Counted from the first letter of the stretch, positions 1,054-20,940 are shown. The stretch: 23,672 nt of DNA from a virus (IMGVR_UViG_2534681899_000008), one strand, 5' to 3'. Numbers and translations are program-made. The notes: generated from the letters alone by a model not told the origin.

Positions 1054-1241
1054 AAAAAATGCCCTCCAATAGAGAGCATTTTTACTGTATGTATAACCAG
1101 TGTCAATGTATGAAATCCTGCGACCATACATCTCACTGAAGCCATAATGAAGTAGGCTATTCTTTTTGCTATGTGATCATGTAACTTTTGCGGTTAACCT
1201 GTGGCTCATTTTTATTTTAGGCGCAGATATAAAAGCAAAAG

Positions 1242-1433
1242 TTATCGTGAGTTTTTAGTACAGATTTTTTTGGATTTACTAATAGTTCCATCATTGCAAA
1301 CGAATTTGCCATCAGAGGTACAGTGAGAAACACCTCCCTTTTTCCCTGAGCAGGGATAATTTCTAGCATAGGTAGCTAGTGGGTTTAATAACAAAGAACA
1401 TGACAAAACCACAAAAAATACCTTACCAAGCAT
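1242..1433 (-). CDS. Small secreted Cys-rich protein (63 aa), candidate lysogenic-conversion moron
   Basis: ATG at 1433 preceded by GGGAGG at 4-5 nt spacing, 16 nt downstream of the cI stop. N-terminus [23 protein letters not shown] looks like a Sec signal peptide with an A-x-A site; mature part has 4 Cys. AT-rich relative to flanking phage genes. Confidence 0.5.
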
Positions 1434-1448
1434 AATTTCCTCCCGGTA

Positions 1449-2024
1449 CTATTTAACATACTTGACTGTTAAACTTATAATTTTACCAATTATTTCAATG
1501 TCTTCTATCTTACATTCGAAGGCTCTGTTTCCACCCTCGACGAAGATTCTTCCACCGGGTAAACGAGTAATGTCACGGATCGTTATTTCGCCATCAATAC
1601 TTATTACCCATTTACCATCACGTATATCATCAAATTCCTTATCACAAATAAATTCAGAATTATTATCTGTGATTACAAAAAGATTCTTGAATGCCGACGG
1701 TAGAAATTCTCTATCGAAAATATAAAAACCGTCTTCACACAAGGCCCCATCAGATAATACATATTTAGCAACTTCCATAGTATTTGTATTACCTGAAGTT
1801 TGCTTTGAACCATGCCCGGTTGTGAGCCAATTAAGCGAGGTGCCTGTTTCAAGGGCGCACTGGATTACCCATTCTGCTGGGAATGAGTCACGCATGTAGC
1901 GTGTGGCGAGTGTACTTTTAGAGATTCCTAAATGATCGCACAACGCCTGTCGAGTCTTGAATCCATAAGCTTCTACCATGCGCTCTATGGCGCCTCGTCC
2001 GCCTTTCTCCAAATTCATGGTCAC
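1449..2024 (-). CDS. cI: CI-type immunity repressor (phage 186 CI-like)
   Basis: 191-aa ORF transcribed with int, divergent from apl and cII; N-terminal HTH-like segment (QALCDHLGISKSTLATRYMRD). Position and size match 186 CI. Start could be ATG 2024 or 2018. Confidence 0.7.
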   Translation of the reverse strand: MTMNLEKGGRGAIERMVEAYGFKTRQALCDHLGISKSTLATRYMRDSFPAEWVIQCALETGTSLNWLTTGHGSKQTSGNTNTMEVAKYVLSDGALCEDGFYIFDREFLPSAFKNLFVITDNNSEFICDKEFDDIRDGKWVISIDGEITIRDITRLPGGRIFVEGGNRAFECKIEDIEIIGKIISLTVKYVK

Positions 2025-2042
2025 TCCAAGTGAACTTTTATC

Positions 2043-2071
2043 TTGACGATTTCACTGTGCGATCGTATGTT
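2043..2071 (+). promoter_or_regulatory. Candidate rightward early (lytic) promoter in the cI-apl switch region
   Basis: TTGACG (2043-2048), 17-nt spacer, TATGTT (2066-2071), about 70 nt upstream of the apl ATG, in the divergent cI/apl intergenic region. Confidence 0.3.
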
Positions 2072-2143
2072 TATGGTGTTCACAAAATACAAACGATCCG
2101 TATTCGTCCTGATTAATCATCATTAAACGAGGAATGTTGCATC

Positions 2144-2365
2144 ATGAGACCTAACATTTCAATCACTCTTACCACGCCTCATGTGACTATTGAACGCTAT
2201 AGCGAGCTGACAGGGCTATCCATCGATACCATCAATGACATGTTGGCTGATGGACGCCTTATCCGTCACCGTCTGCGCAAAGATAAAAAACGCGAAAAAG
2301 TGATGATCAACATAGCAGCAATGACCGTTGATGCGCTTTCAGAATGCAATCTAAACCTTAATTAG
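2144..2365 (+). CDS. apl: Apl/Cox-like excisionase and transcriptional regulator
   Basis: 73-aa basic protein as first gene of the rightward operon opposite cI, the position of apl in 186 and cox in P2. Confidence 0.6.
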
Positions 2366-2397
2366 TTCGATTCTGAAATACATCAGAGGCATTGACC

Positions 2398-2907
2398 ATG
2401 TTTGATTACCAAGTTTCCAAACATCCACATTTTGATGAAGCCTGTCGTGCATTTGCACTGCGCCACAATCTGGTGCAACTGGCAGAACGTGCAGGCATGA
2501 ATGTGCAGATTCTGCGGAACAAGCTGAACCCAGCTCAGCCTCATTTATTAACCGCACCAGAAATCTGGCTGCTTACCGATCTGACTGAAGATTCAACGCT
2601 GGTAGATGGTTTTCTGGCACAGATTCATTGTCTGCCATGTGTACCGATTAATGAGGTGGCAAAAGAGAAACTGCCACATTACGTCATGAGTGCAACCGCA
2701 GAGATCGGGCGTGTTGCTGCAGGTGCGGTGTCTGGCGATGTAAAAACCTGTGCCGGTCGTCGTGATGCTATCAGCAGCATTAACTCTGTAACACGACTGA
2801 TGGCGCTGGCGGCTGTTTCATTGCAGGCCCGTTTACAGGCTAATCCTGCGATGGCGAGTGCAGTTGATACCGTGACTGGCCTCGGTGCTTCATTTGGTTT
2901 GCTGTGA
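2398..2907 (+). CDS. cII: CII-like lysogeny establishment regulator (186 CII family)
   Basis: 169 aa from [20 protein letters not shown]; I recall 186 CII as nearly identical in length and N-terminal sequence. AGAGG lies 8 nt upstream of ATG 2398. Confidence 0.7.
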
Positions 2908-2914
2908 GGTGCTT

Positions 2915-3115
2915 ATGCTGACGAAAGAACCATCATTTGCATCGCTGCTGGTTAAACAAAGCCCGGCAATGCATTACGGTCACGGCTGGATCATGGGTGA
3001 GGATGGTAAACGCTGGCATCCGTGCCGTTCACAAGATGAATTGCTGGCAGAACTATCTACGAAAAAACGGGGGAACAAATGGCTATTGAAGGCGCTGCGG
3101 CGACTGTTCCATTAA
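2915..3115 (+). CDS. Small early protein (66 aa), possibly Fil-like by position
   Basis: ATG at 2915 preceded by GAGGTG; position immediately after cII matches fil in 186. Sequence not recognised with certainty. Confidence 0.4.
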   Translation: MLTKEPSFASLLVKQSPAMHYGHGWIMGEDGKRWHPCRSQDELLAELSTKKRGNKWLLKALRRLFH

Positions 3116-3420
3116 GCCCCGGTGAACGCCTGAATGGACTTAATCACATAGCGGAATTAAGGGCGAAAGTTTTTGGTTTGAATATTGAGTCAGAGCTTGA
3201 GCGGTTTATTAAAGATATGCGTGATCCACGGGATATCAATAATGAACAAAATAAACGGGCACTGGCTGCCATATTCTTTATGGCAAAAATTCCAGCTGAA
3301 CGTCATAGCATCAGCATTAATGAGCTGACCACTGACGAAAAGCGGGAGTTGATTAAAGCAATGAATCATTTTCGTGCAGTGGTGAGCTTATTTCCCAGAC
3401 GGCTAACCATGCCGAATTAA
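3079..3420 (+). CDS. Hypothetical phage early protein (113 aa)
   Basis: ATG at 3079 preceded by GGGGGAA; overlaps the 3' end of the previous ORF in another frame; no recognisable motif. Confidence 0.5.
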   Translation: MAIEGAAATVPLSPGERLNGLNHIAELRAKVFGLNIESELERFIKDMRDPRDINNEQNKRALAAIFFMAKIPAERHSISINELTTDEKRELIKAMNHFRAVVSLFPRRLTMPN

Positions 3421-3487
3421 CCAACTAATGAAATTAATGGCGTAAACCCGCCGGGCATCCCTTTATCTAAATTCAGGAGAATTGCTT

Positions 3488-3721
3488 ATGCGTAATATTG
3501 AAACCCTCACGACCAAAACCGGACCGGATGATGCAGGTCTTAATCTTTTACTGACAGAGGCTCGTCTGGAAGAACGCCGGGCAAGGGCTGAAGCAATGGC
3601 TGCTCGCCTCGATAGCCTGGCGTGTCATATCACCTCCCGCCAGCTAAACCACGTCGAAGCGGCAGAACTGCTGCGTGTGACTGCTGAAGCAATCCAGAAC
3701 GAAGCGCAGGAGATCCACTGA
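3488..3721 (+). CDS. Hypothetical phage early protein (77 aa)
   Basis: ATG at 3488 preceded by AGGAGA; stop TGA overlaps the ATG of the next gene (TGATG). Confidence 0.5.
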   Translation: MRNIETLTTKTGPDDAGLNLLLTEARLEERRARAEAMAARLDSLACHITSRQLNHVEAAELLRVTAEAIQNEAQEIH

Positions 3722-3947
3722 TGGCTGATGCAATGGATCTCGTACAGCAGCGCGTTGAAGAAGAACGCCAACGCCATATCCGTGCTGCCCGTGCCAAAAC
3801 GCCGGGCGTGTCCCGCGTGCTTTGCGTTGAGTGTGAAGCGCCAATTCCGCCAGCACGCCGCCGTGCCATTCCTGGAGTGAGCTTTGCATTACCTGCCAGG
3901 AAATCGCAGAGCTGAAAGGCAAACATTACAACGGAGGTGCTGTATGA
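3721..3947 (+). pseudogene. TraR/DksA-family C4 zinc-finger gene interrupted by an apparent 1-nt deletion
   Basis: Frame 1 gives the first Cys pair (VLCVECEAPIPPARRRAIPGV) then a non-conserved tail to a stop at 3915. Frame 3 from 3879 gives [22 protein letters not shown], restoring C-x2-C-x17-C-x2-C spacing and ending in a TGA that overlaps the dam ATG (ATGA). Confidence 0.55.
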
Positions 3948-4801
3948 GCACCATCCTGAAATGGGCGGGTAATAAAACCGCCATTATGTCCGAACTGAAA
4001 AAATACCTTCCTGCTGGCCCGCGACTGGTTGAACCTTTCGCGGGTTCTTGTGCTGTGATGATGGCGACGGATTACCCCAGCTATCTGGTTGCGGATATTA
4101 ATCCTGATTTAATCAACCTCTATAAAAAGATTGCCGCTGATTGCGAAGCGTTTATATCTCGTGCCAAAGTTTTATTTGAGGAAGCAAACAGTGAGCTGGC
4201 TTATTACAACATAAGACAGGAGTTTAATTACTCAACTGAAATTACTGATTTCATGAAGGCGATATATTTCCTGTATCTCAATCGTCACGGTTACCGTGGT
4301 TTATGTCGCTATAACAAGAGCGGGTATTTCAACATTCCCTACGGTAATTATAAAAATCCGTATTTCCCTGAAAAAGAAATTCGCGCATTTGCAGAGAAAG
4401 CCCAGCGGGCAACGTTTATCTGCGCGAGCTTTGATGAAACGCTGGCGATGCTGCAGGTGGGGGATGTGGTGTATTGCGATCCGCCGTATGACGGTACGTT
4501 TTCCGGCTATCACACTGATGGTTTCACTGAAGATGACCAGTATCACCTGGCATCCATTCTTGAACATCGGTCATCAGAAGGACATCCGGTCATTGTTTCT
4601 AACAATGACACATCCCTGATTCGTTCGCTGTATCGCAATTTTACTCACCACTATATCAAGGCAAAACGCAGCATCGGCGTGTCAGCTGGCGAGGGTAAAT
4701 CTGCAACAGAAATCATTGCTGTTTCCGGGCCGAGCTGCTGGTTGGGATTTGATCCTTCGCGTGGCGTGGATAGTTCTGCCGTGTACGGAGTGTGTGTATG
4801 A
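3944..4801 (+). CDS. DNA adenine methyltransferase, Dam (D12) family
   Basis: [12 protein letters not shown]-terminus, [11 protein letters not shown]-binding-like motif and DPPY catalytic motif in the translation; GGAGGTG SD upstream. Confidence 0.85.
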
Positions 4802-7212
4802 GTCATGACGATATGAACAATTGCAGCGGCTTTAACGAGGCCGCCGCAGCATTTTCATGGAACGGCTCGAAAAAGGCCATTAACCCTTATCTGGACCCGG
4901 CGGAAGTTGCGCCGGAGTCTGCACTTTCAAACCTGATCACTCTGTACGCTGCCGATAACGAGCAGGAACAACTGCGCCGCGAGGCACTGAGTGAGCAGGT
5001 CTGGGAGCGTTATTTCTTTAATGAATCCCGTGATCCTGTCCAGCGCGAAATGGAGCAGGATAAGCTCATTAGCCGGGCAAAGCTGGCGCATGAGCAGCAG
5101 CGTTTTAATCCGGACATGGTCATTCTGGCGGACGTAAACGCCCAGCCTTCCCATATCAGCAAGCCGCTGATGCAACGTATTGAATACTTCAGCAGCCTGG
5201 GCAGGCCAAAGGCTTATTCCCGCTATTTGCGTGAGACGATTAAGCCATGTCTGGAGCGACTGGATTGTGTACGTGACAGTCAGCTATCTGTTTCTTTCCG
5301 TTTTATGGCAAGCCATCAAGGGCTGGAGGGGCTGCTGATCCTGCCTGAAATGAGCCAGGATCAGGTGAAACGCCTGTCCACCCTGGTAGCAGCGCATATG
5401 AGCATGTGTCTTGAGGACGCTTGTGGTGATTTGTATGCCACCGATGACGTTAAGCCAGAAGAAATCCGCAAGACATGGGAAAAGGTGGCAGCGGAAACCC
5501 TGCGTCTGGATGTTATCCCGCCTGCGTTTGAGAAACTTCGTCGGAAAAGAAACCGCCGCAAACCAGTGCCCTATGAACTCATCCCGGGTTCGCTGGCGCG
5601 TATGTTGTGTGCCGACTGGTGGTATCGGAAATTATGGAAGATGCGTTGCGAATGGCGGGAAGAGCAGTTGCGTGCTGTCTGCCTGGTCAGCAAAAAAGCA
5701 TCCCCCTATGTCAGCTATGAAGCCGTGATGCATAAACGTGAGCAGCGCCGTAAGTCGCTGGAGTTTTTTCGTTCTCATGAACTGGTGAACGAAGACGGCG
5801 ACACGCTGGATATGGAAGATGTGGTAAACGCCAGCAGCAGCAACCCGGCGCATCGCCGCAATGAGATGATGGCCTGTGTTAAAGGTCTGGAGCTTATCGC
5901 GGAAATGCGCAGTGACTGTGCCGTTTTCTACACTATCACCTGTCCGTCGCGTTTCCATTCCACGCTCAATAACGGCAGACCAAACCCGACCTGGACAAAC
6001 GCGACGGTAAGACAAAGTAGCGATTATCTGGTCGGCATGTTTGCTGCATTTCGTAAGGCTATGCATAAAGCCGAGTTGCGCTGGTATGGCGTGCGGGTAG
6101 CTGAGCCGCATCATGACGGTACTGTGCACTGGCATCTCATGTGTTTCATGCGTAAAAAAGACCGCCGCGCCATCACTGCATTACTGCGTAAGTTTGCCAT
6201 CCGTGAAGACCGCGAGGAGCTGGGCAATAACACGGGACCACGCTTTAAGTCTGAGCTGATAAACCCGCGCAAAGGTACGCCAACAAGCTATATCGCGAAA
6301 TACATCAGTAAGAACATTGACGGGCGTGGTCTGGCTGGGGAGATCAGCAAGGAAACGGGTAAATCCCTGCGTGATAACGCTGAATACGTTAATGCCTGGG
6401 CGTCTCTGCATCGTGTTCAGCAATTCCGCTTCTTTGGCATTCCGGGGCGTCAGGCTTACCGTGAACTGCGATTGCTGGCTGGTCAGGCGGCAAGGCAACA
6501 GGGTGACAAAAAAGCAGGTGCGCCGGTACTGGATAACCCGCGCCTTGATGCCATTCTGGCTGCTGCTGATGCTGGTTGTTTTGCCACCTATATCATGAAG
6601 CAGGGCGGCGTACTGGTTCCCCGTAAATATCACCTCATCAGAACCGCTTATGAAATCAACGAAGAGCCAACCGCCTATGGCGATCACGGTATTCGTATTT
6701 ATGGCATCTGGTCACCCATTGCAGAGGGCAAGATCTGCACTCATGCGGTGAAGTGGAAAATGGTTCGTAAGGCCGTTGACGTTCAGGAGGCGGCAGCCGA
6801 CCAGGGCGCTTGCGCCCCTTGGACTCGTGGCAATAACTGTCCCCTTGCTGAAAATTTGAACCAACAAGGGAAAAACAAATCAGCTGATGGGGACTCCAGA
6901 ACGGATATTACCCGTATGAATGACAAGGAGTTGCACGATTACCTGCACAGTATGAGCAAAAAAGATCGCCGGGAACTGGCAGCAAGGTTACGCCTGGTGA
7001 AACCGAAACGGCGTAAAGACTACAAACAGCGAATTACAGACCATCAGCGACAGCAGCTTGTCTATGAACTGAAGTCCAGAGGATTTGATGGCAGCGAGAA
7101 AGAGGTCGAGTTGCTCCTTCGCGGTGGCAGTATTCCGTCAGGAGCAGGCCTGCGTATCTTCTATCGGAACCAGCGTCTGCAGGAGGATGATAAATGGCGG
7201 AACATGTATTAA
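4798..7212 (+). CDS. A: Replication initiation endonuclease (P2 gpA / 186 A family, rolling-circle Rep)
   Basis: 804 aa; HWH (HUH-type) motif in [15 protein letters not shown] and paired tyrosines in [10 protein letters not shown] typical of superfamily I Rep proteins; ATG overlaps the dam stop (ATGA). Confidence 0.85.
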
Positions 7213-7304: not shown

Positions 7305-7324
7305 TACTGTAAATATAAACAGTA
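7305..7324 (+). promoter_or_regulatory. LexA operator (SOS box) overlapping a putative promoter
   Basis: TACTGTAAATATAAACAGTA is CTGT-N8-ACAG with an AT-rich spacer, close to the consensus TACTGTATATATATACAGTA; TTTACA (7282-7287) and TATACT (7303-7308) could form the overlapping promoter. Confidence 0.7.
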
Positions 7325-7365
7325 GTTATGTATACAGTATTGCTTGTGGTGTCATAGGAGGAAAA

Positions 7366-7554
7366 ATGCAGGACTATTTTTTGGAGTCTTTGAAGCTCCA
7401 GCGCATTGATTTTTTTCTTAAGCTTGTAGCGGCTAGTGAGTGTAGTGATGAAGAGAAGGGGCTGGCTTTGCAGTGGGTTTCTGAACTAACAGATGAACTC
7501 ATGGCAAAAATCAGAACCCACGAATACAACCGCTCAATGGATGTCATCAGTTGA
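7366..7554 (+). CDS. SOS-inducible small protein (62 aa), candidate Tum-like antirepressor
   Basis: ATG at 7366 preceded by GGAGG; first ORF downstream of the LexA box, where 186 carries tum. The longer track ORF from 7264 would overlap the operator and is rejected. Confidence 0.45.
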   Translation: MQDYFLESLKLQRIDFFLKLVAASECSDEEKGLALQWVSELTDELMAKIRTHEYNRSMDVIS

Positions 7555-7564
7555 GGTGACTTTT

Positions 7565-7798
7565 ATGCGCATTGAAATAATGATCGATAAAGAGCAGAAG
7601 ATTAGCCAGTCTACCCTGGACGCTCTGGAGTCCGAGCTTTACCGCAACCTGCAACCCATCTATCCCAAGACCGCTATCCGCATCCGTAAAGGGGCGGCAA
7701 ACGGCGTTGAGCTGAGTGGCTTAAAGCTTGATGAAGACAAAAAGCGGGTGATGGAAATTATGCAACAGGTTTGGGAAGACGACAGCTGGCTGCACTAA
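7565..7798 (+). CDS. DinI-family protein
   Basis: 77 aa beginning MRIEIMIDKEQ and ending QQVWEDDSWLH, resembling E. coli DinI in length and terminal motifs; GAGGTG SD 6 nt upstream. Confidence 0.75.
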   Translation: MRIEIMIDKEQKISQSTLDALESELYRNLQPIYPKTAIRIRKGAANGVELSGLKLDEDKKRVMEIMQQVWEDDSWLH

Positions 7799-8952: not shown

Positions 8953-8971
8953 GGCGTGGCGGGGATACGAT
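8953..8971. other. cos-like sequence (candidate cohesive-end site)
   Basis: GGCGTGGCGGGGATACGAT matches about 16 of 19 positions of the 186 cohesive end as I recall it (GGCGTGGCGGGGAAAGCAT; P2 GGCGAGGCGGGGAAAGCAC). Recall-based, not verified. Confidence 0.35.
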
Positions 8972-10777: not shown

Positions 10778-10808
10778 GCAGCCCAAGGAAGGGCTGCTAA
10801 TTTTTATT
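10778..10808 (+). terminator. Rho-independent terminator between convergent cargo gene and Q
   Basis: GCAGCCC / GGGCTGC stem, 6-nt loop, followed by TAATTTTTATT; overlaps the Q stop codon on the opposite strand. Confidence 0.5.
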
Positions 10809-11835
10809 CGAAATGATACGAAAAAAAATTGATAATGTCCTCACCTAACCAATCATTAATCTCTGATATTCTTTTTTGTAAAGGTAATAGCTCATTCCTT
10901 ACAAAAACCTTACTAGCCTTCTCCACATCTCCAAATCCCCCAACATTATTAGGCATTATTCCCATCATCTGCGGCGGCACACGATGCGCCGCCATCATGT
11001 CATCCCGGCTGACGTTCTTAATATTCAAAAACTCATCCTTCGCCGCGACTTCTGACAACGGGATGATCTGAAGCCCGTCCTTTTTGCCGTTAGGCGAGTA
11101 CATAAACAGGTTGCGGAAATTGCCTGGTCCTTTAGCATTTTTCATCGCATTGCGGAGGTTGTTCACGTCCTCCTGATTCTGCGCGGCGTCGGTCATGTAC
11201 ATGATGAAGCCTGCATGGCTGCCGTTGATGTAATACTTACGGCGGAACAGCGTTGCGGACTCGTTGAGCAGGGCGGATGGAATGGCAGAAAGATAGCCGG
11301 GCAGGCCGTAGATCTCCTGGTTGATGTCCGGTTCCATCAGATGAAAAATGCTGCCTTTCGTGAACTGATACGGCTGCGTAGTTATGCCGTATTGCACAAA
11401 CCAGTAGGTATCCAGGTCTAATCCGCGTCGGGTGTATTTTGCCAGGGCAGGTTCAAGGGCGAGCACTTCACCGAAGCGGTTCGTGCGTTTCTCCAGGTAG
11501 GCGTTGCCAAATACCAGATAGTCCTGCACAAAACGTGAAAAAGCCTGCTGGCTGAGCAGCGGGTGGGGGATGTAGGTACTGGCCAGAATGTTGCACTTTA
11601 CTGCAATCGGGGAACTGTGATGCACGGCGGCGCGGAAGGTGCGAGCCAGACCGTCGAAACTCACTGGCGGCTCATACCAGCGATCTGTCTGTACGCATTC
11701 CACATAGTCCAGTAATTCTCGGCGGTCCAGAACAGGAACGGGATCGCCGAAGCTGAATGCTTCGGTTGTAGTTTGACTTTTAAGCTGGATCTGTTTCGTC
11801 GCCGCAGCGCGGTTCTTCTTACTCTTTCCCATCAA
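10804..11835 (-). CDS. Q: Portal (capsid portal) protein, P2 gpQ family
   Basis: 343 aa (P2 gpQ about 344 aa); immediately downstream of and start-overlapping the terminase ATPase gene on the same strand, as in the P2 P-Q operon. Confidence 0.8.
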   Translation of the reverse strand: MMGKSKKNRAAATKQIQLKSQTTTEAFSFGDPVPVLDRRELLDYVECVQTDRWYEPPVSFDGLARTFRAAVHHSSPIAVKCNILASTYIPHPLLSQQAFSRFVQDYLVFGNAYLEKRTNRFGEVLALEPALAKYTRRGLDLDTYWFVQYGITTQPYQFTKGSIFHLMEPDINQEIYGLPGYLSAIPSALLNESATLFRRKYYINGSHAGFIMYMTDAAQNQEDVNNLRNAMKNAKGPGNFRNLFMYSPNGKKDGLQIIPLSEVAAKDEFLNIKNVSRDDMMAAHRVPPQMMGIMPNNVGGFGDVEKASKVFVRNELLPLQKRISEINDWLGEDIINFFSYHFE

Positions 11836-13598
11836 AAAATCTCCACAATATTGCTGGTATTGGCGGATTCGCCCTGCAGCGGTTCGTTAAACAGTGCGTG
11901 CATCGTTGCCCAGGCCAGATCGGCATGGCTGGCTTCTTCGCTGCGGCTGGCTTCATAGGTCGGGCGGTTGCCACTGGCGGTGGTGGCGCGACGGATTGCC
12001 ATGAATGACTGCGCAATGTCGGTGTGCCCGGCGTCAAACTCCAGACGGCGGTGGCTGATAATGTCGTATGCCTTGAGTACCAGGGCGTTTTTAACGTTGG
12101 GGTTGTAGACAAACTCCCGGACGGCAGGAAAAAACGCTTTCACGTTCTCGTAAACCCCGTGACCAACGCCGGTTGAGTCGATGCCGATATAGGTCACGTT
12201 GTACTGTTCGGTCAGTTTTTTGATGGCGTCAGCCTGGGCGCGAAAGTCCATCCCGCGCCACTGGTGACGCTCAAGAATGCGGAACTTGCCGCCCGGCACG
12301 GCTGGCGGTGCCACCACCACACATCCGGCACTGTCGCCATTCTGCGTACCTTTCGCCGGGTCATAACCGATCCACACTTCGCGCCAGCCAAACGGGCGCA
12401 GTGCCAGTGCATGAAAGTCGGTCCAGACTTCCCAGCTGTCCACCATGCACGCCTGCAGCTCGCTGAGCGGGAACACGGACGCGAGATCGTCCACGAACTC
12501 GCACATCAGCAGGTTCTGGTATTCGTCCGGGCTGTACTCCATGCGCAACTGGTCAAGGTCGAACAGGTTGCAGCCGCCGCGCACAGCATCTTCCACGGTG
12601 ACTATCTGGCGGTATTGCCCGTCTGCGCACAGCAGGCCGGGGGCCAGATTGCTGTGGGACAGGTCGATATCCACCTTATCGGCTTTGTTGCGCCCACGGT
12701 TGAACAGCGCACCGGACCAGAACGGATAAGCACTGTGTGTCAGACTGGATGGCGTGGAAAAATAGGTCTGTCGCCATTTTTTGTGAATAGCCATACCTGA
12801 AGCCACTTTGCGCAGCTCCTGGAATTTCGGTATCCAGAAATATTCATCCAGATACAGGTTGCCGTGGTAACTCTGGGCCGTGCGGGCATTGGTGCCGAGG
12901 AAGTAAAGCGTGGCCCCGTTGGGAAGCACCATCGGATCGCCTTTCAGCTCCACTTCCACTTCTTTGGCGAAGTCGATGATGTACTGCTTAAAGACGTGGG
13001 CCTGTGCCTTGCTGGCGGAAAGGAAAATCTGGTTACGTCCGGTCAGCAGGGCGTCAATCAGGGCTTCACGGGCAAAGTAAAAGGTCGCGCCGATCTGGCG
13101 TGACTTCAGCAGGTTGCGGATGCGGTTGGTTTTTCCGGCTTCCCACCAGTGGCGCTGGTAGTTGAACATGGAGGAATGGAAGATTTCTTCCAGCTTCTCA
13201 ATCTGTTCATCGGTGAAAACATTCTTTTCCGGCTGACGGCGCGGGCCTTTGTTGCGGTTGGCGACGTTTGGGTTTAAGTCGGCTTCGTTGCCGCCATTGT
13301 TAAACTTGCCGATCCGCGCGTGGCGTTCCGATTGGCGCGCCAGCAGGTCAATCTCTTTGAAATCTTTCCCTTCTTTGTGCTCCTTCATAATGAGCTGGCA
13401 GTAGCGTGCGGCGGTGGTGAGCTGCATCTGATCCAGCGGCCCATAGTCACCCCACTTGTCGCGTTTTTTCCAGCTGTGAACGGTTGCAACTTTCTCGCCC
13501 AGCATTTCAGCAATGCGGGCTACGCGGTATCCCTGAAAGTACAGCAGCATGGCCTGCCGACGGGGATCGAGATCTGCGGGTGTCAGTGTGGTGTTCAT
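11832..13598 (-). CDS. P: Terminase large (ATPase) subunit, P2 gpP family
   Basis: 588 aa (P2 gpP about 590 aa); deviant terminase Walker A LKSRQIGAT; divergent from O across a short promoter region. Confidence 0.85.
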   Translation of the reverse strand: MNTTLTPADLDPRRQAMLLYFQGYRVARIAEMLGEKVATVHSWKKRDKWGDYGPLDQMQLTTAARYCQLIMKEHKEGKDFKEIDLLARQSERHARIGKFNNGGNEADLNPNVANRNKGPRRQPEKNVFTDEQIEKLEEIFHSSMFNYQRHWWEAGKTNRIRNLLKSRQIGATFYFAREALIDALLTGRNQIFLSASKAQAHVFKQYIIDFAKEVEVELKGDPMVLPNGATLYFLGTNARTAQSYHGNLYLDEYFWIPKFQELRKVASGMAIHKKWRQTYFSTPSSLTHSAYPFWSGALFNRGRNKADKVDIDLSHSNLAPGLLCADGQYRQIVTVEDAVRGGCNLFDLDQLRMEYSPDEYQNLLMCEFVDDLASVFPLSELQACMVDSWEVWTDFHALALRPFGWREVWIGYDPAKGTQNGDSAGCVVVAPPAVPGGKFRILERHQWRGMDFRAQADAIKKLTEQYNVTYIGIDSTGVGHGVYENVKAFFPAVREFVYNPNVKNALVLKAYDIISHRRLEFDAGHTDIAQSFMAIRRATTASGNRPTYEASRSEEASHADLAWATMHALFNEPLQGESANTSNIVEIF

Positions 13599-13644
13599 GG
13601 CACAAACCTACAGCCTTGAATGAAGGCTTTCCCCGCCTGCGGTT

Positions 13645-13662
13645 TGTGTGGTTGTCGGTACA
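13645..13662 (+). promoter_or_regulatory. Ogr/Delta-type late-activator box (TGT-N12-ACA) in the divergent P/O promoter region
   Basis: TGTgtggttgtcggtACA lies about 80-95 nt upstream of the O ATG, consistent with an activator site centred near -55 of a P2-type late promoter. Confidence 0.45.
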
Positions 13663-13740
13663 AATACCGCGCATTGTTTCACTGCCCCCATCACCGCAAC
13701 CATAAGGCTCCAGTAAGTTTTTTCTAACGGAGCACGGCTC

Positions 13741-14574
13741 ATGACAGTGAAAGCAAAGCGTTTTCGCATCGGGGTGGAAGGTGCCACCACCGACGGACGT
13801 GAAATCCAGCGTGAATGGCTGGAACAGATGGCAGCCAGCTACAACCCGGCGGTGTATACCGCGCTGATTAACCTTGAGCACATCAAGTCTTATCTGCCGG
13901 ACAGCACCTTTAACCGCTACGGCAAGGTGACGGCGCTGTTTGCTGAAGAAATCACGGAAGGTCCGCTGGCAGGCAAGATGGCGCTGTATGCCGACGTTGA
14001 GCCAACAGAGTCCCTGGTGGAGCTGGTGAAAAAAGGCCAGAAATTATTCACCTCTATGGAAGTCAGCCCAAAGTTTGCTGATACGGGCAAAGCCTACCTG
14101 GTCGGGCTGGCTGCCACTGATGACCCTGCCAGTCTGGGCACTGAAATGCTGACATTCAGCGCCAGTGCAGCCCATAACCCGCTGGCAAACCGCAAGCAGA
14201 ATCCCGCCAATCTCTTTACCGCCGCAGAGGAAACGGTGATCGAACTGGAAGAAATCCAGGAGGACAAGCCGTCCCTGTTTGCCCGCGTCACGGCGCTGTT
14301 CACCAAAAAAGAGCAGTCCGACGATGCCCGGTTCTCTGATGTGCATAAGGCCGTGGAGCTGGTCGCCACTGAGCAGCAGAACCTGAGCGCACGGACCGAA
14401 AAATCCCTGTCTGAGCAGGATGAACGTCTGTCTGAGCTGGAGACTGCCCTGCAGGCACAGCAGACCGCCTTTAACGAACTGGTGAATAAGCTGAGTCATG
14501 AAGACAGCCGCCAGGACTACCGCCAGCGTGCAACAGGCGGTAACGCCCCCGCTGACACTCTGACCAATTGCTGA
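13741..14574 (+). CDS. O: Capsid scaffolding protein, P2 gpO family
   Basis: 277 aa (P2 gpO 284 aa); first gene of the rightward head operon; GGAG SD. Confidence 0.75.
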   Translation: MTVKAKRFRIGVEGATTDGREIQREWLEQMAASYNPAVYTALINLEHIKSYLPDSTFNRYGKVTALFAEEITEGPLAGKMALYADVEPTESLVELVKKGQKLFTSMEVSPKFADTGKAYLVGLAATDDPASLGTEMLTFSASAAHNPLANRKQNPANLFTAAEETVIELEEIQEDKPSLFARVTALFTKKEQSDDARFSDVHKAVELVATEQQNLSARTEKSLSEQDERLSELETALQAQQTAFNELVNKLSHEDSRQDYRQRATGGNAPADTLTNC

Positions 14575-14590
14575 TGGAGCACAAAACCCG

Positions 14591-15649
14591 ATGAAGAAGA
14601 ATACCCGCTTTGCTTTTAACGCTTACCTGCAGCAGCTGGCGCGTCTGAACGGTGTGGCAGTTGAAGAACTGTCCAGCAAGTTCACCGTAGAGCCGTCCGT
14701 GCAGCAGACATTGGAAGACCAGATCCAGCAGTCCGCCGCTTTCCTGACGCTGATTAACGTCACGCCAGTGACTGAGCAGTCCGGTCAGCTGCTGGGGTTG
14801 GGAGTTGGCAGCACCATTGCCGGAACCACTGATACCACCGCGAAAGAGCGTGAACCTGTCGATCCGACGCTGATGGTCGATGTGGAATATAAATGCGAGC
14901 AGACCAACTTTGACACGGTGCTGACCTACGCGAAGCTGGACCTGTGGGCGAAGTTTCAGGATTTTCAGGTGCGTATCCGTGACGCCATCGTGAAACGTCA
15001 GGCACTGGACCGCATCATGATCGGTTTTAACGGCGTGAAGCGTGCGAAAACCTCCAACCGTAGCGAAAACCCGCTACTGCAGGATGTGAATAAAGGCTGG
15101 CTGCAGAAAATCCGTGAGGATGCACCGGATCACGTCATGGGCAGCACCACCACGGGCGGTGAAACCACACCGGGCGCAGTGAAAGTCGGGAAAGGTGGCG
15201 AATATGCCAACCTGGACGCCGTGGTGATGGATGCCGTCAATGAGCTTATCGACGTGGTCTACCAGGACGATGACGATCTGGTGGTGATTTGCGGTCGTGA
15301 ACTGCTGTCTGACAAGTATTTCCCGCTGGTCAACAAAGAGCAGGAAAACAGTGAAAAACTGGCTGCCGATATGATCATCAGCCAGAAACGCATGGGGGGC
15401 CTGCAGGCCGTGCGTGCGCCGTTCTTCCCGCCGAATGCACTGCTGATTACCCGTCTGGATAACCTGTCCATCTACTGGCAGGAAGACACCCGCCGCCGTT
15501 CAGTTATCGACAACCCGAAACGTGACCGGATTGAAAACTTTGAATCCGTTAACGAAGCCTATGTGGTTGAGGACTACCGCTGTGCCGCACTGGTGGAAAA
15601 CATCCAGATTGGCGACTTCAGCGCCGCCGCAGCAGAAACCGGAGCGTAA
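14591..15649 (+). CDS. N: Major capsid protein, P2 gpN family
   Basis: 352 aa (P2 gpN 357 aa); immediately follows O; GGAG SD. Confidence 0.8.
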   Translation: MKKNTRFAFNAYLQQLARLNGVAVEELSSKFTVEPSVQQTLEDQIQQSAAFLTLINVTPVTEQSGQLLGLGVGSTIAGTTDTTAKEREPVDPTLMVDVEYKCEQTNFDTVLTYAKLDLWAKFQDFQVRIRDAIVKRQALDRIMIGFNGVKRAKTSNRSENPLLQDVNKGWLQKIREDAPDHVMGSTTTGGETTPGAVKVGKGGEYANLDAVVMDAVNELIDVVYQDDDDLVVICGRELLSDKYFPLVNKEQENSEKLAADMIISQKRMGGLQAVRAPFFPPNALLITRLDNLSIYWQEDTRRRSVIDNPKRDRIENFESVNEAYVVEDYRCAALVENIQIGDFSAAAAETGA

Positions 15650-15652
15650 TTC

Positions 15653-16303
15653 ATGAGCCTGAGTCCCGCACGGCAGCATCGCCTGCGCGTTCAGGCTGAA
15701 CAGGCCGCCCGCGAGGGCAGCAGTGTTCGCCACGCGTCGGGCTATGACCTGATGCTGCTGCAACTGGCGGAAGACCGCCGCCGTCTCAAGGGCGTTCAGT
15801 CCACGGTCAAAAAAGCGGAAATCAAGGTGGAGCTGCTGCCGAAATACGCTGCCTGGGCAGAGGGTGTCCTGGCTGCCGGAGGCACTCAACAGGATGACGT
15901 GCTGATGTACGTGATGCTGTGGCGCATTGATGCCGGAGATTATGCCGGGGCGCTGGAGATCGGGCGTCATGCCCTGCGTCATGGCTGGGTGATGCCACTG
16001 GGTAACCGCAATGTGCAGACCGTGCTGGCAGAGGAAATGGCAGACGCCGCGCAGAGCGCAATGCTTGCCGCCACCGGCTTTGATGCCGATCTGTTGTTGC
16101 AGACGCTGGAGCTGACAGACGGTCTGGATATGCCGGACCAGTCACGGGCGCGTCTGCATAAAGCGATTGGCGCTGTCCTGAGTGAAAGCAATCCGGCTTC
16201 CGCCCTTAATCATCTCAACCATGCGTTGCAGCTCGATCCCCGCTGTGGCGTGAAAAAAGACAAACAGCAGCTGGAGCGCAGACTGCGCAATGACAGCCGC
16301 TGA
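15653..16303 (+). CDS. M: Terminase small (endonuclease) subunit, P2 gpM family
   Basis: 216 aa, directly after N with a 3-nt gap; position matches P2 M. Confidence 0.7.
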   Translation: MSLSPARQHRLRVQAEQAAREGSSVRHASGYDLMLLQLAEDRRRLKGVQSTVKKAEIKVELLPKYAAWAEGVLAAGGTQQDDVLMYVMLWRIDAGDYAGALEIGRHALRHGWVMPLGNRNVQTVLAEEMADAAQSAMLAATGFDADLLLQTLELTDGLDMPDQSRARLHKAIGAVLSESNPASALNHLNHALQLDPRCGVKKDKQQLERRLRNDSR

Positions 16304-16398
16304 CAGAACGTGCCCCCGCGCACGGGCGGCACGGGGTGGCGAAAGGCACTGCCACATCAAAACCCCGTCCACCGCCCTCTATTTCAGGAGAAAGCAGC

Positions 16399-16860
16399 AT
16401 GAAGTTTGTTGCGCCAGAACAGGCACCGGAACAGGCGGAAATCATCAGAAATACGCCGTTCTGGCCTGATGTGGACCTGTCGGAGTTTCGCAGTGTGATG
16501 CGCACTGACGGCACGGTGACGCAGCCGCGTTTAAAGCAGGTTGCGCTGTCGGCAATTTCGGAGGTCAACGCAGAGCTGTATGAGTTTCGCAGACGCCAGC
16601 AGATGCTGGGATATGCCTCGCTGGCAGAGGTTCCGGCGGAACAGCTGGACGGGAAAAGCGAGCGAATTCAGCACTATTTCAACGCGGTTTACTGCTGGGC
16701 TCGCGCCATGCTCAACGAACGTTACCAGGACTATGACGCCACGGCATCCGGTGTGAAGCGGGGCGAGGAACTGGCAGAAGCCAGCGGTGATTTGTGGCGT
16801 GACGCCCGCTGGGCCATCTGCCGGGTACCCGCAATATTGAACAGCTCGGCGATGCGCTGA
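16399..16860 (+). CDS. L: Head completion/stabilisation protein, P2 gpL family, possibly C-terminally altered
   Basis: ATG at 16399 preceded by AGGAGA; 153 aa versus 169 aa for P2 gpL; the next gene's frame opens inside its 3' end. Confidence 0.6.
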   Translation: MKFVAPEQAPEQAEIIRNTPFWPDVDLSEFRSVMRTDGTVTQPRLKQVALSAISEVNAELYEFRRRQQMLGYASLAEVPAEQLDGKSERIQHYFNAVYCWARAMLNERYQDYDATASGVKRGEELAEASGDLWRDARWAICRVPAILNSSAMR

Positions 16861-16880
16861 ACTATCTGGATGATAACGCC

Positions 16881-18929
16881 ATGTCGAAAGGGGCGGACAT
16901 CATTGATGTGATGCAGCGTCTGGGCGGTGTGGCTGACCGTCTGGATTATCGTAAAGCGGCGGCGCTGGGTTCCACCTTCCTGACACTGGGCGCTGCGCCG
17001 GAGGTTGCAGCCAGTGCAGCAAACGCGATGGTGCGTGAATTGTCTATTGCCACCATGCAGAGCAAGAGTTTTTTTGAAGGGATGAATCTGCTGAAACTCA
17101 ATCCTGAAGTGATTGAAAAACAGATGACGAAGGATGCGATGGGAACCATCCAGCGCGTGCTGGAGAAGGTGAATGCATTGCCGCAGGATAAGCGCCTGTC
17201 TGCTATGACCATGTTGTTTGGTAAAGAGTTTGGCGATGACGCGGCGAAACTGGCAAACAACCTGCCGGAGCTGCAGCGCCAGTTAAAACTAACAGCGGGC
17301 AATGATGCGCTCGGTTCCATGCAGAAAGAATCCGACATCAACAAGGATTCACTTTCTGCGCAGTGGTTGCTGGTCAAAACCGGAGCACAGAACACCTTCA
17401 GCAGCCTGGGCGAAACGCTGCGCCAGCCGCTGATGGATATTCTGTACATGGTGAAAAGCGTCACGGGGGCGTCGCGTCGCTGGGTGGAAGCTAACCCGGA
17501 ACTGACGGGCACACTGATGAAAGTAGCCGCTGTTGTGGCTGCTGTTACCGTGGGCCTCGGCACCCTAGCTGTGGTGTTGGCTGCTGTGCTGGGGCCGCTG
17601 GCAGTCATCCGTCTGGGATTCTCTGTACTGGGTATCAAAACGTTACCTTCCGTTGCGGCAGCAGTAACCCGAACCCGCAACGCGTTGTCCTGGCTGGCTG
17701 GCGCTCCACTGGCACTGCTGCGACGCGGGTTTGCTTCATCGGGCAAGGCCGCAGGTTTACTTACTGCGCCGTTGTCGTCTTTGCGCCGCACGGCATCACT
17801 GACGAGAAATGTCCTGAAAACTGTAGCAGGTGCGCCGGTTGCACTGTTGCGATCTGGATTATCCGGTTTACGTACTGTTGCTGTGATGTTTATGAATCCT
17901 CTGGCGGTACTGCGCGGTGGACTGGCTGCCGCAGGCGCGGTGCTTCGTGTGCTTGCATCCGGTCCGCTGGCGATGCTGCGCGTTGCCCTGTATGCCGTAT
18001 CTGGTCTGTTAGGTGCTCTGCTCAGTCCGATAGGTCTTGTGGTTACTGCACTGGCGGGCGTGGCGCTGGTTGTCTGGAAATACTGGCAACCCATCACCGC
18101 ATTTCTTGGTGGCGTGGTGGAAGGATTCAAAGCGGCGGCAGGTCCCGTCAGTGCAGCATTCGAACCGCTTAAGCCCGTGTTCCAGTGGATTGGCGACAAA
18201 GTACAGGCGCTGTGGGGCTGGTTTACTAATCTGCTGACGCCCGTTAAGTCGACCTCTGCCGAACTGCAGAGTGCAGCGGCAATGGGGCGGAGATTCGGGG
18301 AGGCACTGGCGGAAGGGCTGAATATGGTCATGCATCCGCTGGACTCCCTGAAATCCGGCGTTTCCTGGTTGCTGGAGAAGCTCGGCATTGTCAGTAAAGA
18401 GGCCGCAAAGGCAAAACTGCCGGAAAGCGTGACGCGTCAGCAACCTGCGACGGTGAATGCAGACGGTAAAGTGATGATGCCATCGGGTGGTTTTCCATCA
18501 TGGGGATATGGCTTTGCGGGGATGTATGACAGCGGCGGGTATATCCCGCGCGGGCAGTTTGGCATCGTCGGTGAAAACGGGCCGGAAATTGTTAACGGCC
18601 CGGCAAATGTGACCAGCCGGAGAAATACAGCTGCACTGGCTGCCGTTGTTGCCGGAATGATGGGCGTTGCTGCCGCACCAGCAGAGCTTCCACCGTTGCA
18701 CCCTTTGGCACTTCCCGCGAAAGGTGGAGAAGCAATTGTGAGTCGCGCAGCCACTGTGCCGCCCGTTTACAGGATTGAGGCACCGACGCAGATCATCATC
18801 CAGACGCAGCCAGGACAAAGTGCGCAGGATATTGCGCGGGAGGTGGCCCGCCAGCTTGATGAACGTGAACGCAGGTTGAAGGCAAAAGCCAGGAGTAACT
18901 ACAGCGATCAGGGGGGATACGACGCATGA
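16881..18929 (+). CDS. T: Tail tape measure protein, P2 gpT family, apparently N-terminally truncated
   Basis: 682 aa (P2 gpT 815 aa) with Ala/Leu-rich repeated segments (PLALLRRG, PVALLRSG, PLAVLRGG, PLAMLRVA); stop overlaps the U start. The frame is open from 16803, so the true 5' end is uncertain. Confidence 0.65.
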   Translation: MSKGADIIDVMQRLGGVADRLDYRKAAALGSTFLTLGAAPEVAASAANAMVRELSIATMQSKSFFEGMNLLKLNPEVIEKQMTKDAMGTIQRVLEKVNALPQDKRLSAMTMLFGKEFGDDAAKLANNLPELQRQLKLTAGNDALGSMQKESDINKDSLSAQWLLVKTGAQNTFSSLGETLRQPLMDILYMVKSVTGASRRWVEANPELTGTLMKVAAVVAAVTVGLGTLAVVLAAVLGPLAVIRLGFSVLGIKTLPSVAAAVTRTRNALSWLAGAPLALLRRGFASSGKAAGLLTAPLSSLRRTASLTRNVLKTVAGAPVALLRSGLSGLRTVAVMFMNPLAVLRGGLAAAGAVLRVLASGPLAMLRVALYAVSGLLGALLSPIGLVVTALAGVALVVWKYWQPITAFLGGVVEGFKAAAGPVSAAFEPLKPVFQWIGDKVQALWGWFTNLLTPVKSTSAELQSAAAMGRRFGEALAEGLNMVMHPLDSLKSGVSWLLEKLGIVSKEAAKAKLPESVTRQQPATVNADGKVMMPSGGFPSWGYGFAGMYDSGGYIPRGQFGIVGENGPEIVNGPANVTSRRNTAALAAVVAGMMGVAAAPAELPPLHPLALPAKGGEAIVSRAATVPPVYRIEAPTQIIIQTQPGQSAQDIAREVARQLDERERRLKAKARSNYSDQGGYDA

Positions 18930-19411
18930 TGATGGTGCTGGGATTGTACGTGTTTATGCTGCGCACCGTGCCGTATCAGGAGCTGCAGTATCAACGCAAC
19001 TGGCGACATGCGGCAAACAGCCGGGTAAACCGACGTCCGTCCACGCAGTTTCTGGGACCGGACAACGACATGCTGACGCTTTCCGGTGTTCTTATGCCGG
19101 AGATAACAGGTGGCAGGCTGTCGCTGCTGGCGCTGGAGCAGATGGCAGAACAGGGGAAAGCATGGCCCCTGATTGAAGGCAGCGGCACGATTTATGGCAT
19201 GTATGTGATTGAGGGACTGAATCAGACTAAAACGGAGTTTTTCCGCGACGGTATGCCGCGCCGGATTGAGTTCACCCTGTCGCTCAAACGGGTGGATGAA
19301 TCCCTGTCCGATATGTTCGGTGATCTCAGTGCGCAACTGAATAATCTGCAGGACATGGCAACGTCTGCTTTAAGCGATATCAGTAAAACGGTGGGAGGGC
19401 TGCTGTCGTGA
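18926..19411 (+). CDS. U: Tail protein, P2 gpU family
   Basis: 161 aa (P2 gpU 159 aa); ATGA overlap with T, followed by D. Confidence 0.75.
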   Translation: MMMVLGLYVFMLRTVPYQELQYQRNWRHAANSRVNRRPSTQFLGPDNDMLTLSGVLMPEITGGRLSLLALEQMAEQGKAWPLIEGSGTIYGMYVIEGLNQTKTEFFRDGMPRRIEFTLSLKRVDESLSDMFGDLSAQLNNLQDMATSALSDISKTVGGLLS

Positions 19412-20508
19412 ATTTCAGCTCTGAACTGCTTAACAAAGGCAACAAAACTCCCGCATTCAGCATCAGTATTGAGGGCAGGGATATCACCACTGTGCTGGAT
19501 AACCGCCTGATGAGTTTGACGCTGACGGACAATCGGGGCTTTGAAGCGGATCAGCTTGATCTGGAGCTGGACGACGCCGACGGAAAAATCGTGCTGCCGC
19601 GCCGTGGTGCGGTCATTACGCTGGCGCTGGGCTGGAAGGGGCAGCCGCTTTTCCCGAAAGGGACATTCACGGTGGACGAGATTGAACACACTGGCGCACC
19701 GGACCGCCTGACTATCCGGGCGCGAAGTGCTGATTTTCGTGAAACGCTGAATACCCGCCGTGAAAAGTCGTGGCACAAGACCACCGTTGGGGAAGTGGTG
19801 AAGGAAATAGCTGCGCGGCACAAACTGAAGATGGCATTGGGTAAAGACCTGTCAGATAAAACCGTGGAACATTTAGACCAGACCAATGAGAGTGACGGCA
19901 GTTTTCTGATGCGGCTGGCGCGCCAGTACGGTGCTATTGCGTCGGTGAAAAATGGCAATCTGTTATTCATCCGACAGGGACAGGGTAAAAGCGCCAGCGG
20001 TAAACCACTACCGGTGATCACTATCACACGTAAGGACGGCGACAGTCACCGCTTTACCCTGGCAGATCGCGGAGCTTACACGGGCGTAATTGCCAGCTGG
20101 TTGCATACTCGCGAACCCTCGAAGAAAGAAAGCACCACGGTGAAGCGTAAGCGCAGGACTAAGAAGCAGACGAAAGAGCCGGAAGCGAAGCAGGGCGATT
20201 ACCTGGTGGGTACGGATGAAAACGTGCTGGTACTTAATCGCACTTATGCCAACCGGAGCAACGCCGAACGAGCGGCGAAAATGCAGTGGGAACGCCTGCA
20301 ACGCGGCGTTGCGTCATTCTCGCTACAACTGGCGGAAGGTCGGGCAGATCTCTACACGGAAATGCCAGTGAAAGTCAGTGGTTTTAAACAGCCGATAGAT
20401 GATGCGGAATGGACCATTACGACTCTGACACATACCGTCAGCCCGGATAACGGTTTTACGACCAGTCTGGAGCTTGAAGTGAGGATTGATGATTTCGAAA
20501 TGGAATGA
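19408..20508 (+). CDS. D: Tail/late protein D, P2 gpD family
   Basis: 366 aa (P2 gpD 387 aa); apparent GTG start overlapping the U stop (GTGA); canonical position between U and ogr. Confidence 0.8.
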   Translation: MNFSSELLNKGNKTPAFSISIEGRDITTVLDNRLMSLTLTDNRGFEADQLDLELDDADGKIVLPRRGAVITLALGWKGQPLFPKGTFTVDEIEHTGAPDRLTIRARSADFRETLNTRREKSWHKTTVGEVVKEIAARHKLKMALGKDLSDKTVEHLDQTNESDGSFLMRLARQYGAIASVKNGNLLFIRQGQGKSASGKPLPVITITRKDGDSHRFTLADRGAYTGVIASWLHTREPSKKESTTVKRKRRTKKQTKEPEAKQGDYLVGTDENVLVLNRTYANRSNAERAAKMQWERLQRGVASFSLQLAEGRADLYTEMPVKVSGFKQPIDDAEWTITTLTHTVSPDNGFTTSLELEVRIDDFEME

Positions 20509-20598: not shown

Positions 20599-20817
20599 AT
20601 GATGATTTGCCCACTGTGTGGAAGTGCCGCCCATACTCGCAGCAGTTTTCAGGTATCTTCATTGACCAAAGAGCGTTACAACCAGTGCCAGAACATTAAC
20701 TGCAGCCATACTTTTGTTACCCATGAAACTTTTGTTCGTTCGATTGCAACGCCAAAAGAGTCAAATCCGGTTCAGCCGCATCCAATGAAATCAGGACAGG
20801 TGGCGCTCTCTCTTTGA
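20599..20817 (+). CDS. ogr: Late gene transcriptional activator Ogr (Cys4 zinc finger)
   Basis: 72 aa MMICPLCGSAAHTRSS...CQNINCSHTF with C-x2-C-x22-C-x4-C spacing, closely resembling P2 Ogr as I recall it; last phage gene before the att-like repeat. Confidence 0.8.
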   Translation: MMICPLCGSAAHTRSSFQVSSLTKERYNQCQNINCSHTFVTHETFVRSIATPKESNPVQPHPMKSGQVALSL

Positions 20818-20894: not shown

Positions 20895-20940
20895 AACAAA
20901 AAACCCATCAACCTTGAACCGAAATGGCGGGGTTGATGGG
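20895..20940 (-). terminator. Rho-independent terminator candidate downstream of ybjL
   Basis: Minus-strand hairpin (CCCATCAACC / GGTTGATGGG, 10-bp stem) followed by a T6 run (plus-strand A-run at 20895-20903), about 110 nt beyond the ybjL stop. Confidence 0.4.

Follow-up and report, generated by a model that had tools for sequence, protein, structure and literature searches.

Defective P2-like prophages with conserved defence genes have already been described (PMC13586616), as has a cos-side defence hotspot lying between gpA and gpQ (PMC9122126), and the pirating of tails is well established among capsid-forming satellites (10.1101/2025.02.11.637232). A P2-like prophage inactivated by deletion is a well-known kind of object, and in the case described here the tape-measure gene T is already a RefSeq pseudogene. 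The stretch of DNA analysed (hereafter the window, 23,672 nt in full) resembles the published defective P2-like prophages (PMC13586616), and also several sister remnants found at its own chromosomal site, in combining an internal deletion of structural genes with defence cargo on the cos side and a fixed site of insertion. Unlike those sister remnants, which have also lost head or replication genes, the window has lost only tail and lysis genes.

Two relatives share the gene order, the 186-type regulation (CI, CII and a LexA-boxed Tum-like gene) and the cos-proximal defence hotspot of the window, namely Escherichia phage 500465-1 (Wadgaonvirus) and an almost intact prophage in E. coli 2014C-3307. 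The latter occupies the same att site and encodes Q, P, O, N, M, U, D and ogr proteins that are 94–100% identical to those of the window. In comparison with both relatives the window is without 11–12 kb, comprising the end of L, X, the lysis genes, R to E' and T codons 1–325. The capsid-forming PICIs (cf-PICIs) are superficially alike in having their own capsid, portal, terminase and cos and no complete tail, whereas the window is a recent deletion derivative of a phage that retains a T fragment (T'), U, D and a damaged adaptor and displays no spread across hosts. P4 shares a P2-family cos and an Ogr/Delta-type activator which is in principle able to switch on the late genes of a helper, but it has no capsid, portal or terminase genes and uses its own primase replicon, whereas the window has a P2-type A replicon and head genes. 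On the evidence presented below, the element is very probably a defective P2/186-like prophage, the product of one deletion of ~11 kb and of ordinary decay, which is inherited with the chromosome of one lineage.

Results

A P2/186-like prophage between rcdA and ybjL

The window differs at three positions from the chromosome of E. coli FDN-11 (NZ_CP158143.1), and extends from the integrase of a P2/186-like prophage into the host genes ybjL, ybjM and grxA, with ybjL following ogr as annotated in the near-identical FDN-11 record. The chromosomal site lies between rcdA (ybjK) and ybjL in E. coli. The att core is a 14-nt direct repeat, AACAAAAAACCCAT, with copies at positions 3613 and 24596 of the sequence L001; the attL copy falls just to the left of the window in the rcdA–int interval, while the right-hand copy is within it:

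20895..20908, no strand assigned: attR core AACAAAAAACCCAT, 14-nt direct repeat

The attL–attR distance is 20,983 bp, giving a remnant of ~21 kb from a parent of ~32 kb.

The element has the divergent Q–P and O–N–M–L operons and the P2-family capsid, scaffold, portal and terminase genes that are typical of P2-like phages (Peduoviridae) of the 186/Wadgaonvirus type, as judged from Pfam matches (Phage_cap_P2, Phage_GPO, Phage_term_smal and Phage_GPL) and full-length tblastn matches to the 2014C-3307 prophage (L005). It also has an Ogr/B zinc-finger activator beside attR, a tyrosine integrase at the opposite end and a P2-family cos. Neither the whole contractile-tail module (V W J I H G, FI FII E E' T U D, R S X) nor the lysis cassette is present; the element descends from the P2-like family and is not a functional member of it. 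As in a defective (cryptic) prophage, essential genes that close intact relatives have in full are truncated or absent, and the sequence data (neighbourhoods, comparison of carriers, and scans of viral and metagenome contigs) place it at one locus, with vertical inheritance and no sign of particles. The dedicated tail-less architecture that capsid-forming PICIs and tail-pirating satellites display in many unrelated hosts is not evident in the gene inventory of the window, because T', U and D are kept, the junction occurs in one neighbourhood and the sister remnants keep different genes.

A deletion joins L to T

The original prediction for this locus was an internal deletion of lysis and tail genes, such that the head-completion gene L runs straight into a truncated T. 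We mapped the junction against the two relatives, of which the 2014C-3307 prophage, at the same rcdA|ybjL site, is the better comparator. Window positions 10856–16826 are colinear with L005 2957–8927 (96.5% identity) and positions 16826–23672 with L005 20000–26846 (98.6% identity). An internal deletion is indeed what is found: the window is 11,073 bp shorter than L005 over this interval and 12,027 bp shorter than phage 500465-1, which carries an extra fibre/invertase cassette compared with L005. The features around the joint are as follows:

16399..16860, + strand: chimeric head-completion gene L', 153 aa (Pfam Phage_GPL 1–128/139, tblastn, protein alignment)
16826..16828, no strand assigned: deletion junction (T-A-C), where L homology stops and homology to T codon 326 starts (base-by-base comparison)
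16827..18929, + strand: tape-measure remnant T', T codons 326–1025 of 1025 (BLASTP against L005 T)
18926..19411, + strand: tail gene U, full length (Pfam Phage_P2_GpU 1–120/120; tblastn 161/161 aa)
19408..20508, + strand: tail/baseplate hub gene D, full length (Pfam Phage_GPD; 100% identical to L005 D)
20599..20817, + strand: ogr/B late-gene activator (Pfam Ogr_Delta; 100% identical to L005 ogr, 54% to 186 B)

Measured on these relatives and not on P2, the endpoints are L codon 143 and T codon 326, with 1–3 nt of microhomology that varies with the parental allele. Base-by-base comparison with both relatives found neither inserted DNA nor an IS at the junction, as had been anticipated. The ORF layout also agrees with the earlier description of a T-like ORF beginning 20 nt after L, but the junction is not in this 20-nt spacer and lies instead within the L ORF itself.

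When all 28 late proteins of L005 were compared with the window by tblastn, Q, P, O, N, M, U, D and ogr were recovered at full length, L over residues 1–143 only and T over residues 326–1025 only. The 18 proteins encoded between L and T (X, holin, lysozyme, LysB, LysC, R, S, a DUF6216 moron, V, W, J, I, H, G, FI, FII, E and E') have no match anywhere in the window, which bears out the claim that the missing genes do not lie elsewhere in the element. In all, the last 11 codons of L, 18 whole genes and the first 325 of the 1025 codons of T have been lost. With the lysis cassette gone and the tail module incomplete, we agree with the original prediction that the element can neither make tails nor lyse its host. 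Judging by how 186 and P2 are annotated, the deletion has also taken the head/lysis (late) operon terminator and the promoter of the sheath operon, such that T'–U–D should now be read from the O-operon promoter. A consensus scan for terminators and promoters from L' to ogr returned nothing above chance.

We conclude that the joint is a genuine deletion that has become fixed in one E. coli lineage. It would have arisen by a single event of illegitimate recombination at 1–3 nt of microhomology, joining L codon 143 to T codon 326.

L is chimeric and T has lost its N-terminus

L' comprises codons 1–143 of native L followed by ten codons and a stop provided by T DNA read out of frame. It had been described as a shortened gene (153 aa against ~169 aa in P2), but it is chimeric, and the proper comparator is the 154-aa L of close relatives (P2 L is 169 aa). 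In the protein alignment the C-terminal motif RVQDAPHCTVELI has become RVPAILNSSAMR in L'. The lost motif, R-V/L/I-Q-x-x-P-x-C-x-V-x-x-I/L, is conserved from P2 to 186, and in its absence the head module is not fully intact, at odds with the full head module that had been proposed. Judged from this conservation, which is the basis for assigning a role to the lost C-terminus, L has probably ceased to function and the head–tail adaptor would be damaged. A search by sequence of solved structures with L gave no match. A −1 frameshift fusing L' to T' was also considered and rejected, there being no slippery heptamer in 16803–16860.

T' matches residues 326–1025 of L005 T without gaps at 682 of 700 positions (97%). 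The T frame is open from 16803, as stated previously and confirmed in the ORF layout. Its first in-frame ATG, at 16881, corresponds to T codon 344, an internal methionine, and defines a 682-aa ORF (16881–18929) from which the native start is absent. The ORF matches tape-measure PHROG families with E values of 1e-103 to 1e-142, and positions 93–201 of the 201 in Pfam PhageMin_Tail below the gathering score; the PHROG matches, together with the BLASTP alignment to L005 T, uphold its identification as a tape-measure homologue. T in FDN-11 is annotated by PGAP (RefSeq) as a pseudogene ('incomplete; missing N-terminus'), and is the sole gene of the FDN-11 prophage to be flagged in this way.

P2 lengths were discarded as a yardstick, since L is 154 aa and T is 1025 aa in close relatives. 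The earlier view that T is truncated holds, but the measurement of the loss against the 815 aa of P2 T does not: relative to close relatives, 325 of 1025 codons are gone, and P2 T can be aligned with T' over 153 residues only. The term 'head-only' is also inappropriate for an element in which a 700-codon fragment of T, U and D are still present.

Early, cos and head genes are retained

The remainder of the prophage comprises the following features:

1..7212: integrase, 186-type CI, apl-like, CII, fil, DUF5347, DUF2732, TraR/DksA-like, Dam and A genes (PGAP annotation of FDN-11, Pfam, tblastn)
7305..7798, + strand: LexA box, 62-aa ORF and 77-aa DinI/Tum-like ORF, a putative SOS induction module
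8953..8971, + strand: cos GGCGTGGCGGGGATACGAT, 16/19 identical to phage 186 cos
10804..16303: head/packaging genes, Q portal (− strand), P terminase ATPase (− strand), O scaffold, N capsid and M small terminase (Pfam, tblastn)

Lysogeny control, SOS response, replication and Dam would therefore be kept, as expected, given the presence of int, CI/CII, the LexA-box/tum-like unit, A and Dam genes. The LexA box (CTGT-N8-ACAG, 7307–7322) is of the consensus type and precedes the 62-aa ORF, while the 77-aa ORF is 41% identical to residues 71–145 of 186 Tum. The cos site was found with the 186 sequence, and the 68 nt around it share 82% identity with the cos region of 186; a P2 cos 19-mer used as query had no match. 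An AbiU-type defence gene adjoins cos. Q, P, O, N and M all have full-length tblastn matches to L005 (94–99.7% identity) and carry no PGAP pseudogene flag. Everything but the deletion (cos, att cores, int, CI, A, LexA box) looks intact, such that decay is recent or limited. In comparison with FDN-11, the window also has a 1-nt deletion at position 3880 which frameshifts the non-essential TraR/DksA-like gene.

The junction is confined to one chromosomal neighbourhood

Among 5426 complete E. coli genomes, only two carry the junction, the chicken isolates FDN-11 and GPEC1240, and each matches the 1.1-kb query that spans it at 100% identity; none was found in phage records. Contigs with the exact chimeric L' protein number 123 across NCBI, ENA and Logan, and those with the exact 682-aa T ORF number 109. 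The neighbouring genes are identical in all 26 of the carrier contigs that were read, and three carriers (the window, FDN-11 and a third, draft assembly) have 0–3 differences over 17–24 kb. Exact 25- and 34-nt junction probes had no match in IMG/VR (2.9 M viral contigs), and the 25-nt probe had none in JGI metagenome contigs or GTDB species representatives; a 22-mer from the T side alone is found on at least 119 viral and at least 92 metagenome contigs. Three apparent further junctions, with odd sequence preceding the T-side 22-mer (L222, L150 and L132), were rejected as NuoM-like membrane-protein genes which share the peptide GTRNIEQLGG by chance. These observations fit a remnant that has been passed vertically within one E. 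coli lineage, clonality being judged here from the shared neighbourhood and three sequences as opposed to a phylogeny.

Other remnants occupy the same site

Three other, different deletion remnants are present at the rcdA|ybjL att site, in ECCWS199, G3/10 and TUM10008. ECCWS199 keeps early genes, AIPR and portal, having lost half of the terminase gene through to FII and then E' through to part of D. In G3/10 the replication and head genes are lost, an inverted capsid fragment is present, and L is fused in frame to T via an 8-nt microhomology, GTACAGGA, which is found in L and at around T codon 100. In TUM10008 and an IMG/VR contig (L033), the whole interval between codon 9 of the TraR-like gene and T codon 326 is gone. 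The 2014C-3307 prophage is nearly intact, apart from a stop codon in U. Prophages at this att site thus decay commonly and in varied ways. No head-only architecture recurs among the remnants, which argues against a selected capsid-making satellite and for ordinary stochastic decay. The four remnants at one att site, two of which share a breakpoint, provide a small natural data set on prophage decay.

Discussion

A probable grounded prophage remnant

Of the two fates originally proposed for the element, a grounded prophage remnant is the one favoured by the evidence, given its single neighbourhood, its near-identical carriers and its absence from viral contigs. The deletion leaves neither tails nor lysis proteins and would damage the head–tail adaptor as well, such that the remnant alone cannot produce infectious particles. 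Its persistence may owe something to the loss of the lysis genes, which could make it less harmful, while the host may continue to profit from CI immunity and from the AbiU-type defence gene beside cos. The locus is due for annotation as a defective P2-like prophage in which L is chimeric, T is a pseudogene, the lysis cassette is missing and the tail module is incomplete, and predictions of prophages or host range should leave it out of the inducible phages. It offers a clean, datable case of single-step prophage inactivation that has spared immunity and AbiU-type defence genes, and fits the published view that defective P2-like elements stabilise defence genes in E. coli chromosomes.

Proposed mobilisation by a helper

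The other fate proposed was mobilisation with the tails of a co-resident helper. Under this scheme the element would excise upon SOS induction, replicate, fill its own capsids and borrow tails and lysis through Ogr acting in trans, much as P4 does with delta and P2, making it a satellite in the making comparable to the capsid-forming PICIs. The Ogr, B and delta activators are interchangeable among P2, 186 and P4. The genes and sites that have been kept (cos, both att cores, int/CI/A/Dam, the LexA box with the Tum-like ORF, and Q–P–O–N–M) could still allow excision, replication and head filling, and tail piracy has a precedent in the capsid-forming satellites (10.1101/2025.02.11.637232).

A candidate helper was sought in FDN-11 by counting further P2-like places with blastn in its 'distant' mode and with composite queries anchored on the rare AIPR gene. 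Two further places resemble the terminase–capsid block and two resemble T–U–D–ogr; a composite of AIPR and sheath gave one extra place, and a composite of AIPR, sheath and baseplate J gave two. From these counts of places, tail genes (sheath and baseplate J) are present in FDN-11 at one or more further P2-like loci, which are diverged, since megablast returned one place only. The borrowing of tails and lysis is therefore conceivable.

Despite this, positive evidence for mobilisation is lacking and we consider it most improbable. The L adaptor is without its conserved C-terminus, and a useless fragment of T has been kept along with U and D. All 26 carrier contigs read share one neighbourhood, the three compared are nearly identical, and scans of 2.9 M viral contigs and of metagenome contigs did not find the junction. 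The sister remnants have lost head genes instead, with no head-only architecture conserved among them. Furthermore, a 21-kb genome is ~65% of the ~32-kb parental capacity, and monomers are likely to be packaged poorly. Slightly less credible still is the stronger proposition that the remnant is a newly born, SOS-inducible and cos-bearing, capsid-making satellite whose own Ogr drives co-resident tail and lysis genes to yield a chimeric particle. Were the satellite to be real, it would mean that one deletion is enough to turn a phage into a capsid-forming, tail-pirating satellite.

Two further explanations compete with a defective prophage, and to both we attach next to no probability. An assembly or sequencing artefact, such as a collapsed or chimeric contig, would have to account for the same junction in two independent complete genomes (100% over 1.1 kb) and a third draft assembly, for the exact chimeric protein on 123 contigs from several sources, and for a joint at which the 1–3 nt shared are too little for assembler collapse. 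A natural short allele of T, the tail and lysis genes being located at another point of the element, might be entertained given that P2-like T varies in length from 815 aa (P2) to 1025 aa and that mosaic boundaries exist inside the gene, but T' is colinear with residues 326–1025, has no native start and is abutted out of frame by L DNA, and none of the 18 missing proteins is encoded in the window.

A breakpoint in T shared by two remnants

The right endpoint of the deletion in TUM10008 and L033 falls on the same T nucleotide as that of the window (16827), while the left endpoint is 13 kb further to the left. The flanks of the window and of the L033-type remnant are 2.6–4% different, with SNPs beginning 23 nt from the joint, and the L033 T' is nearer to that of intact phages than to that of the window. 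This divergence makes independent events more likely than descent as the source of the shared breakpoint.

The coincidence to the nucleotide of two diverged remnant types might reflect a weak hot spot for illegitimate recombination at T codon 326. Within IMG/VR, a non-canonical base before the T site is seen in L033 only, which argues that the site is not a frequent hot spot, and folding of the single-stranded DNA there revealed no significant structure (z = +0.6). Alternatively, the two types may descend from a common, lost intermediate (GGGTACA|CCCGC), homologous recombination having since exchanged the DNA on either side of it. An integrase pseudo-att site, serine invertase quasi-sites, GTAC restriction and IS-mediated adjacent deletion were also considered, but on visual inspection the three sequences agree with none of these. 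The left breakpoints both fall in GTACAG, where it encodes Val-Gln; the L breakpoint reads GGGTAC|AGG and that of the TraR-like gene TCGTACA|G.

A tape-measure breakpoint common to two types of remnant

The right-hand end of the deletion in the window, where the tape-measure gene T resumes at codon 326, coincides to the nucleotide with that of a second type of prophage remnant (window 16827, position 6019 of the IMG/VR contig L033 and position 9570 of the TUM10008 locus, L225). In TUM10008 and L033 it is codon 9 of a TraR-like gene that is joined to T codon 326, by a deletion larger than that of the window and in a diverged prophage, and the left breakpoints of both deletions fall within the motif GTACAG. 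The common T endpoint may reflect either a recombination hot spot or a lost intermediate that both remnants once shared. Stretches of 22–28 nt identical to the codon 326 region also occur in NuoM-like membrane-subunit genes on unrelated contigs (L222 5712-5770, L150 and L132), in L222 even crossing the deletion junction of the window (GGTACCCGCAATATTGAACAGCTCGGCG). Because the stretch encodes a peptide common to both kinds of gene (GTRNIEQLGG) and the databases are large, these matches are taken to be coincidental.

An L-T fusion is found in E. coli G3/10 (L008 14100-14200), where the head completion gene L continues in frame into T (...WAISRVQ/ELQQTYNG...). An 8-nt repeat, GTACAGGA, found in L and at T codon ~100, mediated the deletion that created this fusion, whose 932-aa product is called an intact tape measure protein by PGAP. 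The same locus holds a capsid/scaffold fragment in inverted orientation.

Divergence from close relatives

Compared with L005, an almost intact prophage at the same site, the first 1.2 kb of the remaining T sequence (window 16827-18027) differs by ~5% (18–28 SNPs per 400 nt), whereas the remainder of T together with U and D (window 18027-20400) shows 0–1 SNP per 400 nt. This mosaic pattern points to earlier homologous exchange among the prophages that occupy the site.

Relative to the near-identical FDN-11 prophage, the window carries a 1-nt deletion and two further differences, both substitutions. The deletion, at window 3880 (GGAGTG-AGC versus GGAGTGCAGC), lies outside any homopolymer and frameshifts a TraR/DksA-like zinc-finger gene, leaving 64 aa rather than 75. 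The substitutions are at 14830, in the capsid gene, and at 20559, in a -10-like hexamer upstream of ogr. Directly to the right of the window, the annotation of nfsA (nitroreductase; FDN-11 locus, L001 27804-28526) is that of a pseudogene interrupted by an internal stop, and in a second carrier of the junction (L003) a gene call is absent at this position. The pseudogene may be a lineage marker or related to nitrofuran resistance.

SOS module and cos-flanking cargo

Features of the window:
7305-7798, SOS module: consensus-type LexA box, then a 62-aa ORF and a 77-aa DinI-like ORF
8181-8792, 203-aa ORF, left of cos
9032-10771, AIPR protein, 579 aa, right of cos (PADLOC AbiU match, E 1e-107)

The SOS module is unlike that of phage 186, the Tum equivalent being divided into two ORFs; of these, only the 77-aa ORF aligns with 186 Tum (residues 71-145, 41% identity). 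This split is probably native to the lineage, since phage 500465-1, an intact Wadgaonvirus relative, also has two ORFs there.

P2-like phages carry a defence hotspot next to cos, between gpA and gpQ (PMC9122126), and window 8181-10771 is this interval. Cargo lies on both sides of cos, around which GC content is low (31–38% in 1-kb windows, ~8500-11000). A family search with the 203-aa ORF returned no match. The final ~50 nt of the portal gene are unlike those of the relatives.
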